Source of the DNA: Candidatus Heimdallarchaeota archaeon
GTDB taxonomy: Archaea; Asgardarchaeota; Heimdallarchaeia; Heimdallarchaeales; Heimdallarchaeaceae
Assembly: GCA_021399345.1 (NCBI GenBank)
Contig: JAAFKI010000059.1
Coordinates: 1-64,000 of the forward strand
Reading direction: 5' to 3'
DNA length: 64,000 nucleotides
This document shows, one piece after another, positions 9,284 to 64,000 of this stretch (the first letter of the stretch is position 1; each line of letters starts with the position of its first letter). The translations under genes and the position numbers were made by a program. The notes beneath the pieces are model-generated. The model saw only the letters and a list, made by a program, of their open reading frames with translations. It had not been told where the DNA came from and did no database searches.

Positions 9284-11581
9284 ATGTCAAGAATTGAGAT
9301 ACTACCCCCACTATTAACTCGTATAGGTTTTAATGAAATTGATATAAAAGTGTATTCTGCTACACTTGGGTTAGGAAAAGTAACCATAGGTGAATTACTA
9401 GTAGTAACAGGTTTAGATCCCCTTACCCTCATTCAATCAGTTAAGAATTTGGAAGAATTGGGTTTCTTGAAGAAAACAGCAGGAAAAACCCCTCAGTACT
9501 TTGCTATGCTCCCCTTTCTTAAAGAATACATAATTATAGAAAAAGACGCCTTATACTCCTTAGATGGGGTAATAACTGCCTTAAAAGGTGCGAAGGAAGA
9601 GTATAGAGAAAAGAAAACCAAATTTGGGGGAACTTTAGAATTAACCGGTGAAGGTTCTGTTTTTGACATTCACGTAGTTAGTGGTTTAATTAAACAAGTG
9701 GTCGAAGCGCTATTCCAACAATATGTTGAGCATAGCGAACAAACTGAAAACTCAGCTTCTGGTTTCATAACAGAAACAGAACAAGAAGTAACTGGGTATC
9801 TGACTCAAGTGATGGATCAACCCTTCCTGTTTTCAACACAGTTGGAAACTTTTGTGCAAGAACTTAATGCTTTTGTAAAACAGTTCCATCACACAGCAAA
9901 ACATAATAGTGATGTTTTAGTCCAAACAACTGAAGAAAAAATACAAAGTTCTTTTGAAAATCTAACACAGATTATTAACAATGGTTTAGATTCACATACA
10001 GAGAATCATAAGGAGTTTCTAGAAAAACTAGCTCCGGATTTGGATAATGCACTCAAAGATCTTGTTAATGATGTGACTGAAATTCAAGAATCCTTCCTCG
10101 AGAATTATAATAGCATTTGGCAAGAATCTTATAGTGCATGGAACTTAGAGTCGAAAAAAGTAGTCGAAGAACTCTCTTCTGAAGTAAACAACATTTTCTC
10201 TGACCAAATTAAACAGACTCAAGAGCTTAGAAGAAGTGTTGAACAAATCGACAGACAAACAAACTTTTTGTCTTCAAAAATTGCTGAAGCTTTAAATGGT
10301 CTAGAAGGCTCTACTATGATGAAATTGGGTAAAGGGAAGAAGCTAATTGAGGCTCCTCTCCAAGATGCAAGAGATACTGTTCGAAACTTAGCTAATGATC
10401 TGAATGAGAGTGGTTTGCAATTGATAGATCAACATGTTTTATCCTTAAATGAAGTTAGGGAAGCGTTGCGTTCCAAATTGGACCACTTTCAGATAACAGG
10501 AGAAACAACCATTCGAACAAAGAAGAATGAACTAACTGATACAACCATAGATAAGATAGATTTGCTACCCAAGAATCTCTTGGAAACGCTCCAAAATCAA
10601 ACAGAAGTGTATGCCACTTCTTCATATGATTCTTGTTCAGAAGTGACAGAAAAATTAAAACAAAACACCGTGGATCAGCTAACTACTACTAAAGATCAAG
10701 TTCTAAAAGATTTTCAGTCTCATGATAACGAAAAAACTCAGATTATTAATAAAATTCAAAATGATACTATCAAAGAATTAAGCAAATCAAAACAAGATTC
10801 AGAGAAAATGGCACTTGAGTTAAAAGAAAAATTACAAGATTCTTTAAATCAATTTCAACAGAAATCAGAAGATAAACGAAACCAATTAGCTATGCAACTA
10901 ACTGAATTAAAACAGCATCTTAAGGATTATAAGGATGAACAAAAGGAACAAATTATAGAACAGATTTCAGAAGGCGAAGAAATCCAAGTCAACACTCTAG
11001 TATCTCAAGTTGCGGCTGTAATAAAGGATGTTGATGAAATTTTAGATTCTCAAATGGATTCTCTTTTGGAAAAAGCAATGACTTTCTATCAAGTTGTTAA
11101 TACAAGAGAAGATGAACTAAGGCAAGTTGATGGTGCTGCGTCATCATATTCATTTGATGGACAACATGATACATCTATTATTGTAGGCGAAGAAGCTATC
11201 AAAGCCAGTATTACAGACATCGCAATGAGGTCCAATTATGAACTCCTTCTTGTTACACCAGATGTTGATGAAGATCTTCTAAAAGAAATGATGCAATACA
11301 CCAAAGCTCAGCGAGTAACACTAGTTTCATATTTTGACAAAAGACATCAGTCTATCCTTAGACCGCTTTCAGAAAGGTTTACAGGATTGAAACTGAAACA
11401 CTATGATAAGAAGGATGTTTACTGTGGGATTTTAGATGGTAATAATGAAGCTGTATTCGCTTTCTTAACTGCTGATTCAATACCTATAGCTGTGAGAACT
11501 TCAAATGAGTTACTTCTAGGTCTCTTTAAATCAGCAATTAATAGGGATGTCTTATTCCATTCAAGTGATGTAGAGGTATAA
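9284..11581 (+). CDS. Giant TrmB-like protein: wHTH, long hendecad helical rod, TrmB/PLD-fold C-terminal domain
   Basis: N-term IGFNEIDIKVYSATLGLGKVTIGEL...LEELGFL...YFAMLP; C-term GEEAIKASITDI...ELLLVTP...GILDGNNEAVF; 11-residue periodic central region. Confidence 0.75.
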   Translation: MSRIEILPPLLTRIGFNEIDIKVYSATLGLGKVTIGELLVVTGLDPLTLIQSVKNLEELGFLKKTAGKTPQYFAMLPFLKEYIIIEKDALYSLDGVITALKGAKEEYREKKTKFGGTLELTGEGSVFDIHVVSGLIKQVVEALFQQYVEHSEQTENSASGFITETEQEVTGYLTQVMDQPFLFSTQLETFVQELNAFVKQFHHTAKHNSDVLVQTTEEKIQSSFENLTQIINNGLDSHTENHKEFLEKLAPDLDNALKDLVNDVTEIQESFLENYNSIWQESYSAWNLESKKVVEELSSEVNNIFSDQIKQTQELRRSVEQIDRQTNFLSSKIAEALNGLEGSTMMKLGKGKKLIEAPLQDARDTVRNLANDLNESGLQLIDQHVLSLNEVREALRSKLDHFQITGETTIRTKKNELTDTTIDKIDLLPKNLLETLQNQTEVYATSSYDSCSEVTEKLKQNTVDQLTTTKDQVLKDFQSHDNEKTQIINKIQNDTIKELSKSKQDSEKMALELKEKLQDSLNQFQQKSEDKRNQLAMQLTELKQHLKDYKDEQKEQIIEQISEGEEIQVNTLVSQVAAVIKDVDEILDSQMDSLLEKAMTFYQVVNTREDELRQVDGAASSYSFDGQHDTSIIVGEEAIKASITDIAMRSNYELLLVTPDVDEDLLKEMMQYTKAQRVTLVSYFDKRHQSILRPLSERFTGLKLKHYDKKDVYCGILDGNNEAVFAFLTADSIPIAVRTSNELLLGLFKSAINRDVLFHSSDVEV

Positions 11582-55366: not shown

Positions 55367-55434
55367 TATAAATAACATTTTCCCATTACCCACATATTTT
55401 TTATATTGAAACATTTATGGTCTAAATGACATTA

Positions 55435-57030
55435 ATGGCTAGTAAGAAAGATAATCAAGTTGTGCCTTGGGTTGAAAAATATCGTCCTGAGCGATTAGAA
55501 GATTTTGTTGGAAACAAGGAGGCAATTCAGAAGTTAGAAAATTGGTTGAAAAGCTGGAACCAACAGAGAAAGAAAGTTGTTCTATTAGCAGGACCTGCCG
55601 GAGTAGGCAAAACTAGTGTTGTATATTATCTGATAAAGAAATATGATTATGAGTTTGTTGAAGTAAATGCTAGCGATAAAAGAAATAAAAAAGCCGTTGA
55701 GCTACTTGTTGGAAGATCATCAACTGAAGGAACTGTACTTCAAGGGGCGAGAGTCAGAAAATTGGTTTTAGTTGATGAAGCGGATGGTCTTTTTGGAAAT
55801 GAAGATAGAGGTGGAGGGAGTGCTTTAACGAAAGCTGTATCTGCGACAAGAATCCCGATAATATGTACCGCCAATGATCCTTCAGCTTCCTCGTTGAAAT
55901 CTGCTAAAAAAAATATGTTAGTAATAGAATTTCACCGTTTGAAAGAAGAGGAAATTCTCACTCTTCTCAAAAAGATTGTTAAAGAGGAAAAACTAGACAT
56001 TAACGATGAAACACTAATTGCTATAACCAAAAATAGTAGTGGTGATGCGAGGTCTGCTATCAATGATTTAGAAGGAGCTTCCTTTGGTACAAAAGGTGTT
56101 AAAATTATTTTTGATCCGAGAAATCAAAAACACAGTTTGGATTCAGCCCTTAATACTATCTTTGGAGCTAAGGATTTTGCTTCTGCTAGAAGGGCTTTAG
56201 ACGGGGTGGATGTTGATTATAGGGAATTACTTACTTATGTTTACGAACATGCCTATAAACAAGCAGATTCATCTGAAGAGTTATTTAGTATTTATCAGCT
56301 AATTGCTGAAGCGGATATGTATTTACAGAGATGTTATATCAAACAAGATTGGAAATTTCTCAAATACTTCTTCACTTTTATTTCTTCAGTGGGATTAGTG
56401 AAAACATCATCTTTTAAATATACTAAATATGGTTTTCCAAGCTATTGGTCATTGATGGGAAGGTTAAGAGGTAGAAATACTAGTTTAATGGGAATAGCAA
56501 ATAAAAGTATAAAACAACTTCATTGTTCAAAAAAAGCTTTTCAGGTTGATTATTATCCATTTATTCGTGTAATCTTCAATACTGACCCAAAAATGGCTGC
56601 TGGTTTAGTCGCTTGGTTTCAGTATGATGAACCAGATGTCTTCTTCTTAACTGATAAATCCAGCAAATTGACTAAAAGAATTTTAGAATACTCAGAAGAA
56701 GCTTATCTGCAAATGGCAGAAAAATGGATAAGCAAAGCTAAAGAAATGGATCAAAGTTTGATTTTTTATACACAGAAAACAACAAAGCCAGTTCAAAAAT
56801 CATCACAAAAACCAAAAAGAGTAACTAAAGCAGAAACAACTGGGAAAGTTGTTAAAGAAAAATCTACAAAAACTGATAATAGAAAAGAAAAAAGCAAAAA
56901 ATCACAAGATGAATTAAAAAAGAAGAAAGTAGATGATTCTAAAACAGAAGAAAAGAAAGAGAAACAATTAACAGATAATAAAATCAAAAAAGATTCTCAA
57001 ACCTCATTGGAAACATTTCTAGGGGAATAA
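55435..57030 (+). CDS. rfcL: Replication factor C large subunit
   Basis: WVEKYRP, GPAGVGKT, NASD.R, DEADG, GDARSAINDL; C-terminal PIP box QTSLETF. Confidence 0.96.
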   Translation: MASKKDNQVVPWVEKYRPERLEDFVGNKEAIQKLENWLKSWNQQRKKVVLLAGPAGVGKTSVVYYLIKKYDYEFVEVNASDKRNKKAVELLVGRSSTEGTVLQGARVRKLVLVDEADGLFGNEDRGGGSALTKAVSATRIPIICTANDPSASSLKSAKKNMLVIEFHRLKEEEILTLLKKIVKEEKLDINDETLIAITKNSSGDARSAINDLEGASFGTKGVKIIFDPRNQKHSLDSALNTIFGAKDFASARRALDGVDVDYRELLTYVYEHAYKQADSSEELFSIYQLIAEADMYLQRCYIKQDWKFLKYFFTFISSVGLVKTSSFKYTKYGFPSYWSLMGRLRGRNTSLMGIANKSIKQLHCSKKAFQVDYYPFIRVIFNTDPKMAAGLVAWFQYDEPDVFFLTDKSSKLTKRILEYSEEAYLQMAEKWISKAKEMDQSLIFYTQKTTKPVQKSSQKPKRVTKAETTGKVVKEKSTKTDNRKEKSKKSQDELKKKKVDDSKTEEKKEKQLTDNKIKKDSQTSLETFLGE

Positions 57031-58093: not shown

Positions 58094-60337
58094 ATGTCAT
58101 TCATTGAAAGATTAGAACTAACACTAGAAGAAAAACAAGTTTATTCTCTTTTATTAGGGTCAGGTCAATTAACGGCTTTTGAAATAGCTCAATTTGGAAA
58201 TCTTCATTTTTCAAAAGTTCAAGTTGCTCTTGATGCATTGCAGAAAAAAGGTGCTGTAGGTGTATCTGAAGGGTATCTCGAGAAATATTTCGTTAGAATA
58301 CCTTTAGAATATCTTGCTGAAAGCAGCGATCAAATTGGTGCAAGTGTAAAGAATAATTTGACAAACACTTCAACTTTCATGGAGAGCAAGAAAACTGAGT
58401 TTAATGAGCTAAGGACCAATCTTGTAACACAGTTAAATGAATCTGTTTCAAGAAAAGAAGCTGAGTTAGATCAAAAATTAGCGAGTTCATCCTCAGAATT
58501 AGAGAATATCCGTAATCAGAAAAAGGAATTTATAGCATCAAAATCAAATGAAATTAAACGCGAATTATCTGCCATTCAAGATGGACAGAAACAGAGTTTA
58601 ACGAATTTTGTTCAAGAAACATTACAGAATAATACAGATAGTATTTCAAGTGCTAAATCATCAATAGATTCAGCCGAAGCAATAATATCTCAAAATAATA
58701 CTGGAAGTGCTTCCACTTCAAGTAGCCAAGTAGATCAAAATGTTAATCAAACGTTGACATCAATTGAGGAAATATCTCAAACCCTAAAACCAAAGTTGGA
58801 ATTATTAGGGGAGAATTATTCAGCCCATATAGGGGAAATTCCACAACTTCTGGAAGAAAGTATTGATTTAACAAAAATCGATGTTAGAGCGTTTAATAAA
58901 AGTCAAACAGATAAGAATCTCAGTTTTTCAACTGAAACTGTAAGAACAACAGGAGAAACTGTTGATAAAATTTCAGAAACAGTCTCTGGTTCTCTAAATG
59001 AATTAAATAACTCACTTGAAATGCTTCTAAACAGAAAAGTAGAAGAATTGTCACTTCAGGTTCAAGAAGCTGTATCTGCTCTAAATGATAAGGTTTCAGA
59101 GATTAAACAATCTTTATCTGATGAACTAATTCAACAGAAAAACCTTGCCTTATCAAATACTGTGTCACAAATAAAAGAAGATATGAATCTTAAGTATACT
59201 AATCTTCAAAACAGTGAGCAAATACATCGTAACAACTTAACAAGTGAAAGAGACATGTTTGCTCAAAAACTTGATGCTCAATATAATGAAACATTACAGA
59301 ACTACAACAATAAGATTCAAGAAATACAGGAAACTGCAAGAACAAGACTAAGTAATTTTGAGGAGAACTTTTCAACTCAATTTAGTGATATTGTGACAGG
59401 CATTGTTGACAATTTAAACAATCATGTTCAATCTTTTAGGGATCTTGCTACAAAACTAAATGAGAATATTAACCAAACACTAGGAACAGAAACTGACAAC
59501 CTAAAGGAAAAATGGTCTGATTTAGCAAGTCAAATGCAAGCAATAGCTCAAGAGAATGAAGTAGCGATAAATTCAAAGTACCAAGAAGCTGTTAATTTGA
59601 TTAATTCTTCAACTTCTGCTATTTCCTCTGAATTATCAACTTATTTGGATCAATCCTTAGAATCTACCCGTAACATAACAAACGATATAGTAACAACATC
59701 AAAGGCTCAAATAACTGATAGTAAAAATCAACTTGCTGGAAATCTAACTGAAGAAGTAGATGCCGCAGCAAGATTTCTTGCTGAGACTGAAGGAAAGTTC
59801 ACAGATACAGCTAATCATCTTTTAACAGTAGCTATGAAATTGAAGAACGATTTCAGAACACTAGAAGCAACAACTAGAGAATCACCCATACCTAGAGTCG
59901 AAACAACATCAATAACAGGATTAGAAGCTACAAAAGATCATATGGATAGAATAGTCAGAGCTGCAAAAAGAAGTGTAACAATAATGTCCCCAAATCCAGA
60001 CTATATACCGCTAGATGCAGTGAAAACCTTACCTTCAACAGTAAGAGTTACTATAGTAACAAAACTAGATGAAACGATAAATAGAGAATGGATCGATTCA
60101 GCTTATACAGCAGAAGCAAATGTTGAGGTAAGAAAGTTCAGAGATGTGGGTACAGGAGTAGAATTGCCAAAGTTCATAGGAGTTGAAAGAGAAAACGAGG
60201 AAGTTCTGATTGGAGCTGTAGATGAAGCAACAAATGAAGTTGTTGGAATCTTAAGTAGTTCTACAGAATTTGCAAAAATAGTTTCCTACATTGTTATCGC
60301 TGATTTTGCTAGAGGAAGATCAACACAAATAAAATAA
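58094..60337 (+). CDS. Giant TrmB-like protein (paralogue of 9284..11581)
   Basis: LTLEEKQVYSLLLGSGQLTAFEI wHTH; hendecad rod; C-term GLEATKDHMDRIVRAAKRSVTIMSP...GVERENEEVLIG; AGGTGA SD. Confidence 0.75.
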   Translation: MSFIERLELTLEEKQVYSLLLGSGQLTAFEIAQFGNLHFSKVQVALDALQKKGAVGVSEGYLEKYFVRIPLEYLAESSDQIGASVKNNLTNTSTFMESKKTEFNELRTNLVTQLNESVSRKEAELDQKLASSSSELENIRNQKKEFIASKSNEIKRELSAIQDGQKQSLTNFVQETLQNNTDSISSAKSSIDSAEAIISQNNTGSASTSSSQVDQNVNQTLTSIEEISQTLKPKLELLGENYSAHIGEIPQLLEESIDLTKIDVRAFNKSQTDKNLSFSTETVRTTGETVDKISETVSGSLNELNNSLEMLLNRKVEELSLQVQEAVSALNDKVSEIKQSLSDELIQQKNLALSNTVSQIKEDMNLKYTNLQNSEQIHRNNLTSERDMFAQKLDAQYNETLQNYNNKIQEIQETARTRLSNFEENFSTQFSDIVTGIVDNLNNHVQSFRDLATKLNENINQTLGTETDNLKEKWSDLASQMQAIAQENEVAINSKYQEAVNLINSSTSAISSELSTYLDQSLESTRNITNDIVTTSKAQITDSKNQLAGNLTEEVDAAARFLAETEGKFTDTANHLLTVAMKLKNDFRTLEATTRESPIPRVETTSITGLEATKDHMDRIVRAAKRSVTIMSPNPDYIPLDAVKTLPSTVRVTIVTKLDETINREWIDSAYTAEANVEVRKFRDVGTGVELPKFIGVERENEEVLIGAVDEATNEVVGILSSSTEFAKIVSYIVIADFARGRSTQIK

Positions 60338-60782: not shown

Positions 60783-61259
60783 CTATTTATGCTTATATTT
60801 CTTAAACAGTCTTTTCCATCCTCGCACTTTTTCTCCCAAATTTATCATACCCATTGGTTTAGATTTGACAACGTTCAAATTATATAGGACTTCATCAAAT
60901 CCATCAAAGACTGCAGGTTCTGAATATCCTCTTCCTATTTGGTCCTCATACATTTCAAGAAATGCTCCGTAAGTCATTTCCATTTGATTTTTCACTTCTT
61001 CGTCTGTTTCACTCATTGGTGTAGTAAATACAACTATCACATCTCTTTCGTTATCTACTCTGAAATGCAATTTTAAGTCTGAAAAGACAACTGTCTGTAT
61101 TTCCTGTTGTCCATATGATTCTTTTGAAAACGCATATAACGCCGCTAGAAAGCCTGTTTGTAGTGTATAATCCGGTCTCATTTTACAAGTTTCTCCTCCA
61201 AAACATCTACTATAATAAGGAATTCCACTACTATCAATAATAAAAACATCATCTGCCAT
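60783..61259 (-). CDS. Longin-like domain protein
   Basis: VFIIDSSGIPYYSR...GFLAALYAFSKE...F pattern typical of archaeal longin folds. Confidence 0.7.
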   Translation of the reverse strand: MADDVFIIDSSGIPYYSRCFGGETCKMRPDYTLQTGFLAALYAFSKESYGQQEIQTVVFSDLKLHFRVDNERDVIVVFTTPMSETDEEVKNQMEMTYGAFLEMYEDQIGRGYSEPAVFDGFDEVLYNLNVVKSKPMGMINLGEKVRGWKRLFKKYKHK

Positions 61260-61411
61260 TTTTATTCACTTTATTACTTTTTGTTCTTCAAATCAAATAG
61301 TGTTTGTTGATACCTTTTAAAATTTGGTTTCAACAAAAATCCTTGATACATTTTTCTTTCCTCATTTTTACCCACATGTTTATTTATTATTTTCTAGATT
61401 TAGTATCAACC

Positions 61412-64000
61412 ATGCTTAATCTAGACTGTGTGTTCTTGAAAACTCTCTCTCAAAAAGAAGGCAACAATCCTCTTTCTACCATACTTATTGATGTAGACAA
61501 AGAACACTTCATACTTAATCTTTGGTCTCCTTGGCATGAGATTGGAGATTATCTCCCACCATATACTCCTTTGAAGATTTTTAATGTTGAAAAGATAGTA
61601 GATGATGAATCTTACTATTTTTCAGCAGGTTCTAAATCCATTGTAGTAGTTGACCCTGATATCTTAATGTATGCCACAGCTGCCAACAGCGTATCCTTTT
61701 GCCCTCGAAGCTATTATATTAATGAAATCGTTGGTGATACTCCTTCTCCTTACATAGCTATTAGGGGTTCCATTGTTCATGATGCCCTTAGTTTAGCTGT
61801 TTCTAACAATTCTAAACCCTCTGAAGAACTATCTAAAGTCCTAGATAATTTTTCTCTTCAGTATGAGCATTATGGATACAAGAAAGAGACCGTATTTCAA
61901 GATGTTAGAAAAATGACAGAAAGTCTAGATTCTTTTGTTGAAAATCTTCCCCCAAATGCTTTACCTGAAATCTTATTTCTTTCTCCTTTCTTCGGAATCA
62001 GAGGTAGAATCGATCTTTTTAGTGATAACAAAATCATCGAGTTAAAAACCGGAAAAGTTTCTGAAGAGAAGGACATTCGCTTTTCTGATCTCCTTCAGGT
62101 TTCTCTCTATCGTTATGGTCTTCAAACTGATATAGATGAATCTCCTCCTGAAGAAGGAAGTGTTCTCTATGTTGGTACAAATACACTTGTTCAAAAAACT
62201 GCTAATCCTAATTGGGGTCTCCTGAGATATGGTATGCAACATAGAAACATCGCTTACCGAATCTCCTATCTGGGGTATATTCCTCCAATTCTTCCTGAAT
62301 CTCAACATAACAGATGTAGAAATTGTTTTGTGAAGCATTATTGTGCTTTAGTTTGTGCAGGCTTGAATCAAGAACGTAGCTGTTCAACATGTCCCCACGA
62401 GCAGCTTTGTACAAAAAAATCTCTTCCTGATACTCACATCGGGTATTTTAACAAATTCTCGAAACTAATTAGATTTGACAAAAGTGAATCAGCAAGAAAT
62501 CTTTCTGATTTGTGGAAACTCTCAATTGATCAACGAGTTGCCAAAGGAAAAGCCATTACCGATTTATCTTTGGAAAATGAAATAAAAGAAGGTAGTACAA
62601 CTAGGTTGTTATATTCTTGCAAGAATAACAGTGAGCTTCGTGAAGGTGATATTGTTATTTTGAGCAAAGGACGAATCAAACAAGGTTTTGTAAGTACTGG
62701 TGTGATTTCAGGCATATCAAATACATCGATAGAAATTGAAACCAGAGCAACTCAAGAATCAGTTTCAACAATTGATATGTACTCAATAGACGTTGGTTTT
62801 AGAAGACAACAAAGAGGTTTGTTTAGTCTTCTTTTCAAAAGAAATCCTTTCCGTGAATTAGTTATTCAAGCTAGTAAATCTGAAACCGAACCTATAAAGG
62901 GAAAATATATTCCAAGTAATCCAACACAAAATGAAGCTGTAGAAAAGATTCTTGGAACAATAAATTATTCTCTTATTCAAGGTCCTGCAGGAACAGGAAA
63001 AACTTATGTGATAGCAAAATCAGCCATTGAGCTAGCTAAACAAGGACAAACAATTCTGATTACAGCATTTACAAATAGAGCTGTAGATAATGTTTGCAAA
63101 TATCTACTAGAAAATGAATTTCATAATTTTATCAGAATTGGTTCTTCTCATTCGATTCAAAAAGATATTCGAAATTACACTATAGACTTTTACAAAAAGC
63201 AAAATCCTGAGAAGTCTACTAAAGAAATTTTAAGAGAGTATCCAATTATTGTAGCAACCACCACCACTATATCTAATCCAGTTTATGAAAAATTAGGAAT
63301 CCAAACAATTATCATTGATGAAGCGAGTCAGATGACTGAACCAACGGTTTTATCTTCTTTGCTTGAAGGAAATAGGTTCATTTTGGTGGGTGATCATAAA
63401 CAACTTCCTCCTGTGGTTCAAAGTCCTCAAGCTCAAAAGGAAAATATGAGTATTTCCTTATTTGAACGTTTAGCAGAGCGAAATCCTGCTTCCATACATC
63501 TTCTAACTCACCAGTTTAGAATGAATGAAAAGCTTATTGATTTTTCTAATAGTCGATTTTATGAAAATAAACTCAAATCTTTTGATGATCTTGTTAGATA
63601 TCAGAATCTTCTGGAATTACCTAATTACAAAGGTGATTATTCTAAATTTAGTTGTCCTGAAATATATGATCCAAAACACCCCCTGATTTTCATCCCAGTA
63701 AACGGTATTTTCGATCACCAGAAAAAGTATAATGTAGAAGAAGCTAAGGTAGTAAGTGAAATAATAACTAATTTCTTAGATCTTGGGTTAACAACAGATC
63801 AACTAGGGGTAATCTGTCCTTACCGAGGACAAGTGGCGGAAATCAGAAGAAATCTCTCGCCAACTATAACCGTTGATACTGTTGATCGCTTTCAAGGGAG
63901 TGATCGTGAATTAATTGTTCTTTCTTTAACCGAAACCACTACAAAGAGTAAGAGAGGTTTTGCTGATGCTAGACGATTAAATGTTGCAGCCACAAGGGCA
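61412..64000 (+). CDS. Dna2-like Fe-S nuclease/SF1 helicase (3'-truncated by window end; missing from ORF track)
   Basis: Manual translation from ATG 61412: DPDIL..T....FCPR, RGSIVHD, GRIDL, IELKTG, CRNC....C, QGPAGTGKT, IDEASQ, GDHKQLPP, TVDRFQG, RRLNVAATRA. Confidence 0.92.
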   Translation, partial: MLNLDCVFLKTLSQKEGNNPLSTILIDVDKEHFILNLWSPWHEIGDYLPPYTPLKIFNVEKIVDDESYYFSAGSKSIVVVDPDILMYATAANSVSFCPRSYYINEIVGDTPSPYIAIRGSIVHDALSLAVSNNSKPSEELSKVLDNFSLQYEHYGYKKETVFQDVRKMTESLDSFVENLPPNALPEILFLSPFFGIRGRIDLFSDNKIIELKTGKVSEEKDIRFSDLLQVSLYRYGLQTDIDESPPEEGSVLYVGTNTLVQKTANPNWGLLRYGMQHRNIAYRISYLGYIPPILPESQHNRCRNCFVKHYCALVCAGLNQERSCSTCPHEQLCTKKSLPDTHIGYFNKFSKLIRFDKSESARNLSDLWKLSIDQRVAKGKAITDLSLENEIKEGSTTRLLYSCKNNSELREGDIVILSKGRIKQGFVSTGVISGISNTSIEIETRATQESVSTIDMYSIDVGFRRQQRGLFSLLFKRNPFRELVIQASKSETEPIKGKYIPSNPTQNEAVEKILGTINYSLIQGPAGTGKTYVIAKSAIELAKQGQTILITAFTNRAVDNVCKYLLENEFHNFIRIGSSHSIQKDIRNYTIDFYKKQNPEKSTKEILREYPIIVATTTTISNPVYEKLGIQTIIIDEASQMTEPTVLSSLLEGNRFILVGDHKQLPPVVQSPQAQKENMSISLFERLAERNPASIHLLTHQFRMNEKLIDFSNSRFYENKLKSFDDLVRYQNLLELPNYKGDYSKFSCPEIYDPKHPLIFIPVNGIFDHQKKYNVEEAKVVSEIITNFLDLGLTTDQLGVICPYRGQVAEIRRNLSPTITVDTVDRFQGSDRELIVLSLTETTTKSKRGFADARRLNVAATRA

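Follow-up and report, generated by a model that had tools for sequence, protein, structure and literature searches.

TrmBL2 is among the few archaeal chromatin proteins of known role: it forms stiff nucleoprotein filaments on DNA and acts as a roadblock that stalls SMC (PMC11840125). This protein of the Thermococcales (TK0471/PF0496; structures 5bpd, 5bpi, 5bqt and 5box) has ~264 residues, with a winged helix-turn-helix (wHTH) domain, one short helix and a phospholipase D (PLD)-like domain, and has no sugar-binding barrel. TrmB and TrmBL1 (3qph, 2f5t) belong to the same wHTH family and carry such a barrel at the C-terminus. Among unrelated long helical proteins, the hairpins of chemoreceptors occur in discrete length classes that change by paired heptad units in both arms (PMC6628036). 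A 64,000-nucleotide stretch from a Candidatus Heimdallarchaeota archaeon (assembly GCA_021399345.1, contig JAAFKI010000059.1, positions 1 to 64,000; hereafter the window) includes a gene at 58094..60337 whose product, here termed OG1 after its orthogroup, has the same domain set and order as TrmBL2 and likewise no sugar barrel. It differs in that ~517 helical residues are inserted between the two domains, in being acidic with a non-basic wHTH, and in its occurrence in Heimdallarchaeaceae. Asgard archaea would thus appear to have built very long arms of exact length onto a TrmBL2-type head.

The open reading frame (ORF) at 58094..60337(+) encodes 747 aa followed by a stop codon. Its parts, as delimited by Pfam searches, AlphaFold2 (AF2) models, Fourier analysis of hydrophobicity, alignments of orthologues and structural comparison with VIA and Foldseek, are as follows:

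58094..60337, + strand: whole gene, giant TrmBL2-like protein with a rod of hendecads (11-residue repeats), orthogroup OG1; ORF with 45 orthologues, mostly of exactly 747 aa
58094..58306, + strand: TrmB-type wHTH, aa 1-71 (Pfam PF01978, AF2, VIA); best-conserved part of the OG1 protein
58307..59059, + strand: arm 1, unbroken hendecad (11/3) helix, aa 72-322 (AF2; Fourier period 3.67, phase-coherent); indels in 0 orthologues
59060..59089, + strand: predicted apex or turn, aa 323-332, without Gly or Pro (AF2 break with a predicted local distance difference test score, pLDDT, <50; mirror centres)
59090..59857, + strand: arm 2, unbroken hendecad helix, aa 333-588 (AF2; Fourier)
58844..59305, + strand: conserved distal block, aa 251-404, symmetric around the apex (column identity, entropy bins)
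59903..60334, + strand: PLD-like alpha/beta C-domain, aa 604-747 (VIA, Foldseek); sole region with indels among orthologues

The wHTH domain matches the Pfam TrmB profile (PF01978) at aa 6-65 with 29.9 bits (curated cut-off, 25.6), and a six-frame search of the genome with the TrmB profile gives 34 bits. In the AF2 model, this domain consists of helices 11-23, 28-34 and 39-51 and strands 55-58 and 64-67, and is matched by VIA to the wHTH domains of MarR and TFE-alpha (Z 10-11). The C-domain fits the N-terminal subdomain of the TrmB effector domain, i.e., the PLD-like subdomain, without the C-terminal barrel (VIA: 2f5t_X, Z 15.0, root-mean-square deviation 2.4 Å, 129 residues; 3qph_A, Z 15.0; deviations of 2.4-2.8 Å over the TrmB superpositions). 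Foldseek searches with the OG1 model return TrmBL2 as the top match (E 4e-7) together with the TrmB effector-domain subdomain (E 9e-7), Nuc and Zucchini. Residues N676, R680, G688, P692, E698 and R699 of the C-domain are invariant. The catalytic PLD motif HxK(x)4D is absent from aa 604-747, where direct reading of the sequence finds no His-x-Lys, and the sugar-binding beta-barrel is missing: OG1 ends after the ~145-aa PLD-like domain, and its alignment spans only residues 107-242 of TrmB. The head is therefore of TrmBL2 type and not a sugar sensor. This likeness is at the level of the fold only, as OG1 scores 14.9 bits with the TrmBL2 equivalog NF041141 (cut-off, 530) and 18.5 bits with the NCBIfam profile of TrmBL1 (cut-off, 650). 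DNA binding by the head is putative and assumed from family membership.

Weak NCBIfam matches bracket the middle of OG1, with positions 12-112 of the TrmBL2 profile aligned to aa 5-109 and positions 86-144 of the TrmBL1 profile to aa 575-635, and therefore the rod sits within the helix that joins both domains of an ordinary TrmB protein. The last ~25 residues of arm 2 correspond, by the second of these weak matches, to the junction between the coiled coil and the E-domain of TrmBL1. The AF2 model built with the orthologue alignment (mean pLDDT, 74) contains the wHTH at 1-67, helices 72-322 and 333-588, and the alpha/beta domain at 604-745, giving a helical span of 517 aa. By these comparisons, OG1 qualifies for a TrmB wHTH, for a PLD-like domain and for the layout of a giant hendecad-rod TrmBL2-like protein.

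The rod is built from hendecads throughout. The mean hydrophobicity spectrum of 46 orthologues over aa 96-600 peaks at 3.67 (11/3) with a normalised power of 50-55, which is reached in 0 of 2000 shuffles, and nothing appears at 3.5. The hendecad phase is coherent from aa ~61 to ~650, apart from a single step of ~65 degrees near aa 342. Core positions are a, d, e and h: the apolar residues occupy a and h, with d and e on either side. Enrichment of Lys is seen at d and e and of Glu at the middle of the polar face, and large hydrophobic residues make up only ~26% of the rod. The very clear hendecads quoted in the preliminary description of this gene were located at aa 101-144 (TEFNELRTNLV/TQLNESVSRKE/AELDQKLASSS/SELENIRNQKK) and aa 395-438 (AQYNETLQNYN/NKIQEIQETAR/TRLSNFEENFS/TQFSDIVTGIV). 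A genome-wide scan for hendecads detected four ORFs only, which encode OG1, a 765-aa paralogue in the window (OG2), a 1260-aa giant and a 485-aa protein.

The length of the rod is exceptionally stable. Across 46 sequences with 42-96% identity, aa 1-646 of OG1 contain no indels, and four remoter representatives with 24-28% rod identity also have none in the rod, all of their length variation lying in loops of the C-domain. In OG2, rod indels occur group-wide only at aa 339-358, i.e., at the midpoint, as deletions of 11 and 3+1 residues. These alignments support a very strong constraint on rod length within each orthologue group. The length constraint proposed in the preliminary description is thereby borne out within groups, down to 24-28% identity, and the free variation of rod length that would speak against it is absent within subfamilies and present between them, where rods range from 425 to 1676 aa. 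The best-conserved part of the OG1 rod is the distal block at aa 251-404, with a column identity of 0.67-0.79 as compared with 0.44-0.61 elsewhere in the arms, and its invariant residues are K261, D263, R265, F267, Q271, L304, L308, L312, K338, N373, Q376, N380, D387 and F389.

The most direct evidence for how the rod halves are arranged comes from the third giant of the same genome, a protein of 1260 aa with a rod of ~1000 aa (P0048; contig C169, L001:3123-6905(-)). Its gene belongs to a three-gene set (G000:C169, L001:3123-10132(-)), in which it lies downstream of genes for a 587-aa AAA_16/STAND-like ATPase and the 485-aa hendecad protein; the latter matches the Pfam Apolipoprotein profile with 54 bits.

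Homologues of the third giant (P0217-P0241) fall into two classes of 1256-1264 aa and 1470-1489 aa. Between a short (~1257 aa) and a long (~1471 aa) form, the offset is -3 up to aa ~445, +103 over aa ~441-726 and +211 from aa ~727, as found both in the multiple alignment and in an independent diagonal scan. Two indels, one of 106 aa at 443 and the other of 108 aa at ~729-732, thus separate the classes. Their sites mirror each other around aa 587.5, the point midway along the rod between an arm at 83-582 and one at 600-1100. At this midpoint, hendecad power is null and the helix breakers G583, G594, G598 and P599 are clustered; conservation likewise peaks in the central segment, where the classes share 30-32 of 44 residues. 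The long form is order-wide and the short form is restricted to a subclade of one genus; therefore, the two indels are paired deletions. Equal deletions at mirrored sites would arise because antiparallel, in-register pairing of the rod halves demands them, and the third giant would in this respect provide a demonstration, from sequences only, of antiparallel rod-half pairing.

OG2 is encoded in the same window:

9284..11581, + strand: paralogue OG2, 765 aa, laid out like OG1, plus a joint; apex at aa 339-358 rich in Gly and Pro (ORF, Pfam, AF2, profile comparison)

OG2 has the same Pfam pattern as OG1 and a hydrophobicity period of 3.665, and TrmBL2 is the top Foldseek match of its model, with which models of methyl-accepting chemotaxis proteins (MCPs) also align. 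The three-part architecture proposed earlier for both proteins is confirmed by the Pfam wHTH, the AF2 helices and the alpha/beta C-domain. Their sequence identity is low, as had been stated: BLASTP detects no similarity (E 0.08), yet the two are related across the wHTH and the whole first arm by profile-profile comparison (probability 92%, E 5e-7), and on this basis OG1 and OG2 are true, old paralogues. For both, the 1260-aa paralogue is closer than the other window protein. In the same genomes, OG1 evolves faster, with 33% identity as compared with 48% for OG2. The earlier statement that the two are of almost the same length is right for the totals (747 and 765 aa), but the helical spans are 517 and 543 aa, and the third giant has 1260 aa. 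In the AF2 models, the arms have 251 and 256 residues in OG1 and 265 and 272 in OG2. This difference stems from two short insertions, mirrored in position, that form the OG2 joint, in which a loop at aa 115-128 lies opposite a kink at aa 567-569 with the mirror at 345.5; both are missing from OG1. The conserved distal block of OG2 spans aa ~309-418, and the midpoint contains the helix breakers G339, G342, G349, G351 and P358.

The OG2 loop itself (aa 115-128; positions 9626-9667 of the window) is non-helical and conserved, with the pattern FGG...DIH..SG and many invariant residues. Together with the kink, it may be a paralogue-specific elbow or binding site.

On balance, we give moderate preference to the reading that OG1 is a TrmBL2-type head with a ~37-nm fold-back arm, which would act as a spacer of fixed length to a distal interaction site. 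The single helix joining the wHTH and the non-catalytic PLD-like domain would have expanded to two hendecad helices of ~250 residues each. These halves of the rod would pair antiparallel and in register, most likely within one chain, to give the ~37-nm arm. Folding back would unite both end domains as a TrmBL2-like head and place the conserved, paralogue-specific tip at the far end. Two chains would probably be joined via the head or as a four-helix bundle. As an indel in one arm would need an equal, mirrored indel in the other, length would change by rare paired steps. The unchanging rod length would then be explained because pairing of the halves penalises one-sided indels, with no ruler function needed, and its cause is probably mechanical. 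The near-equal length of OG1 and OG2 may likewise be inherited, as homologous first arms and the suppression of unpaired indels would suffice to explain it. The layout, the hendecad period, the indel-free rod and the paired deletions of the third paralogue are shown by the present data; for OG1 itself, intramolecular fold-back, dimerisation, DNA binding and the spacer function are what we infer.

Several features of the OG1 model and alignment are consistent with fold-back. The AF2 model is a hairpin, and its pLDDT values in ten-residue blocks mirror nearly exactly at aa ~327. By VIA, the rod model covers 309 of 309 residues of the chemoreceptor hairpin 2ch7_A and also aligns over 474 residues with cohesin arms (7ogt_B). 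Conservation along the rod has a mirror centre at aa 324 (r = 0.67); with a parallel offset of 311, r is 0.63, so that this measure alone does not discriminate. Entropy-normalised covariation has anti-diagonal peaks at 329.5 in OG1 and 347.5 in OG2, ~3-3.7 standard deviations (SD) above background; raw mutual information with average product correction (MI-APC) is confounded by column entropy, and as the peaks are unchanged after normalisation they serve as supporting evidence only. The OG1 peak at 329.5 and the centre at 324 coincide with the AF2 break, and the OG2 centre at 347.5 was computed before AF2 placed the OG2 apex at 343-348.

The likeness to chemoreceptors and to SMC proteins is in build, and OG1 has neither an ATPase nor a kinase-control module. 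Like the MCP hairpin (2ch7), the modelled rod is an elongated hairpin of antiparallel helices whose tip is highly conserved and whose length changes in paired steps, but OG1 is built of hendecads and not heptads, has no membrane or HAMP part, and has tips that differ between paralogues, so that no family relationship is implied; there is no Pfam match to MCPsignal (PF00015) in OG1, and its hydrophobicity power at 3.5 is 0.1. As in SMC, Rad50 and MukB, the head would be formed from both chain ends with an antiparallel arm between it and a conserved apex, and the breaks in OG2 resemble an elbow. OG1 differs from these proteins in its hendecads and in lacking a recognisable ABC ATPase head as well as a hinge or zinc hook: Pfam searches at E up to 0.1 match neither a P-loop nor an SMC profile in OG1, and the rod contains no Cys.

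A number of observations weigh against this reading. Gly and Pro are absent from OG1 between G299 and G436, so that a continuous helix is possible there; AF2 confidence at the supposed turn is <50, and single-chain AF2 can only fold a long helix back onto itself. The OG1 covariation is modest (~3 SD, effective n=21) and would be the same for a hairpin and for a head-to-tail dimer. Across the family, the strongest phase break lies at 0.45-0.55 of the rod in only 22% of 71 representatives, within a broad distribution. The neighbouring enzymes ADI, Dna2 and a TIM-barrel gene product are likewise nearly indel-free at ~63% identity, and therefore the length claim for OG1 rests on the comparison at 24-28% identity. 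With regard to DNA binding, the wHTH has a net charge of -1 and the whole protein a pI of 4.8, and by our own reading OG1 apparently has Gln where the recognition helix of the Pfam TrmB consensus has tyrosine.

The rival that best survives is an extended head-to-tail dimer, in which two continuous helices of ~517 residues (~77 nm) would run antiparallel and form a composite head of wHTH and C-domain at each end, which could bridge two DNA sites. We regard it as rather unlikely, yet it predicts the same mirrored covariation, paired indels and conserved centre as the hairpin, and it agrees with the lack of Gly and Pro at 299-436 of OG1, with the small phase shift of just ~65 degrees at the midpoint, and with the midpoint deletions of OG2 (11, 3+1), which are near whole numbers of helical turns. 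It is harder to reconcile with the helix breakers that cluster precisely at the midpoint of OG2 and of the third paralogue, with the interruption of the helix at the midpoint in the AF2 models of both OG1 and OG2, and with the heads of TrmB and TrmBL2 (3qph, 5bpd), which combine the wHTH and the PLD-like domain of the same chain. For OG1 itself the hairpin is favoured only moderately; it is the Gly/Pro midpoint clusters of OG2 and the third paralogue that favour a turn.

The preliminary description had taken the similar length of the two paralogues as a sign of a ruler function or of co-assembly, i.e., that the OG1 and OG2 rods would be length-matched side by side in a hetero-oligomer or filament, or would be rulers for a shared distance. 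We consider this improbable. Both proteins are single-copy, co-inherited (30/30 and 29/30 genomes) and encoded 42-49 kb apart, and the helical residues of arm 1 number 251 in either model if the 14-aa loop of OG2 is set aside. Co-inheritance in close relatives with conserved synteny is, however, weightless, and 520-580 aa is the commonest small rod size in the superfamily. The tips of OG1 (251-404) and OG2 are unrelated (hhalign, 1%), and each protein is nearer to the 1260-aa paralogue. The joint is present in OG2 only, arm 2 differs by 13-16 residues, and the evolutionary rates differ. Moreover, a 214-aa loss shortened the third paralogue in a subclade in which OG1 stayed at 747 aa and OG2 at 765/766 aa. 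In the comparison of paralogue counts and rod lengths that had been suggested there, the similarity of OG1 and OG2 stands, but the window genome has three giants and the rod of the third is ~1000 aa. Given rods of 425-1676 aa, a length that may be inherited, unrelated tips and an uncoupled 214-aa loss, similar length does not support a ruler or co-assembly; OG1-OG2 co-assembly is unsupported rather than refuted.

Doubtful to a somewhat greater degree is an apolipoprotein-like surface binder, whose hendecad helices would lie on lipid or membrane in the manner of apolipoproteins, perilipins and phasins and anchor the head, possibly with DNA, there, the hairpin being a lipid-free storage form. 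Profile searches of the Protein Data Bank (PDB) yield only apolipoproteins A-IV and A-I and apolipophorin III (E 8e-8 to 5e-4), so that apoA-I, apoA-IV and apoLp-III, with their 11/22-residue amphipathic helices, are the only matches there at the sequence level. The middle region of OG1 also matches the Pfam Apolipoprotein profile (PF01442) with 39.3 bits, and its arrangement, in which Lys lies at d/e and Glu centrally on the polar face, is one which we take to be a class-A-like helix pattern. The Pfam score is, however, far under the cut-off of 90, proline punctuation is missing from helices that are unbroken over ~250 residues, large hydrophobics amount to ~26% with a narrow apolar stripe (a/h), and the rod is attached to a wHTH head in the archaeal cytoplasm. 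A helix lying on a surface would need neither paired indels nor residue-exact length. The apolipoprotein matches may reflect periodicity alone, and the likeness is probably convergent periodicity.

Least probable of all is an ordinary TrmB-family transcription regulator with the long helix as a mere dimerisation element, which would suit the wHTH score above the Pfam cut-off, the TrmB-like effector fold and the TrmB annotations, but not the missing sugar-binding barrel, the indel-free rod at 24% identity and conserved distal block that a passive linker would hardly have, the hundreds of superfamily representatives with rods of up to 1676 aa, or the operon of one paralogue with a STAND-type ATPase and the 485-aa hendecad protein.

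OG1 orthologues are all found in Heimdallarchaeota metagenome-assembled genomes from marine sediments, vents and seeps, and their source annotation is 'sugar-specific transcriptional regulator TrmB'. The Heimdallarchaeaceae are not known to include a cultured member. In the GTDB family of the window genome, OG1 is present in 30/30 and OG2 in 29/30 genomes, both as single copies, with a spacing of 42-49 kb wherever contigs allow. A superfamily search retrieved 456 representatives at E up to 1e-3; the three-part layout is present in 71 of the 150 best representatives, and the rod lengths of 425-1676 aa are grouped by subfamily. No description of a hendecad-rod TrmBL2-like family was found in full-text searches of the literature, and these giants of Asgard archaea would constitute an undescribed family.

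The paired deletions would settle what kind of object is to be sought, and they explain residue-exact length without a ruler. Provided that DNA is bound by the heads and other structures by the tips, the giants would be candidates for organising nucleoid architecture in the lineage nearest to eukaryotes; for protein design, they would offer natural hendecad modules whose length is defined. In a more specific and decidedly speculative picture, which we consider unlikely as it stands, Heimdall-group Asgard archaea would possess three ATPase-less, SMC-arm-like spacers of ~37, 40 and 75-90 nm, with DNA-binding heads and partner-specific tips (e.g., for the membrane, the cytoskeleton or another chromosomal site), that position or compartmentalise the nucleoid at set distances.

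The nearest OG1 relatives beyond its family (P0075-P0091; sister family, same order) have ~904-913 aa and are thus ~165 aa longer. At the 20% identity of this ~910-aa class, the extra ~165 aa are all placed before OG1 position 99 by HMMER and are divided 95/70 between the arms by MAFFT. A consistent hendecad phase break of this class lies at only ~0.3 of the rod.

A related genus with a complete genome has its OG1 orthologue (G007:C1:1799374-1801603) split near residue 242 into two overlapping frames of 249 and 509 aa; a frameshift, decay to a pseudogene or an error in sequencing may account for this. In metatranscriptome X20, contigs with 97-98% identity cover positions 59057-59490 only and leave the neighbouring genes uncovered; as this run had been selected by means of the OG1 gene, the contigs give a weak hint of expression.

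The gene is flanked in the window by:

55426-57030, + strand: RFC-large-subunit-like AAA+ protein (Rad17/RFC lid domains)
61304-64000, + strand: Dna2-like PD-(D/E)XK nuclease with SF1 helicase

In 24/24 loci fetched, the gene order is RFC-large-like AAA+, orf104, phosphoribosyltransferase, OG1 giant and Dna2-like nuclease-helicase. The remaining region is equally conserved, which indicates general synteny, and the neighbourhood was therefore dropped as a functional clue for OG1. Between OG1 and the Dna2-like gene, a 158-aa ORF (60783-61259(-)) has a weak longin match (Fuz_longin_1, E 0.003, below cut-off) and tblastn matches in 9/24 related loci.

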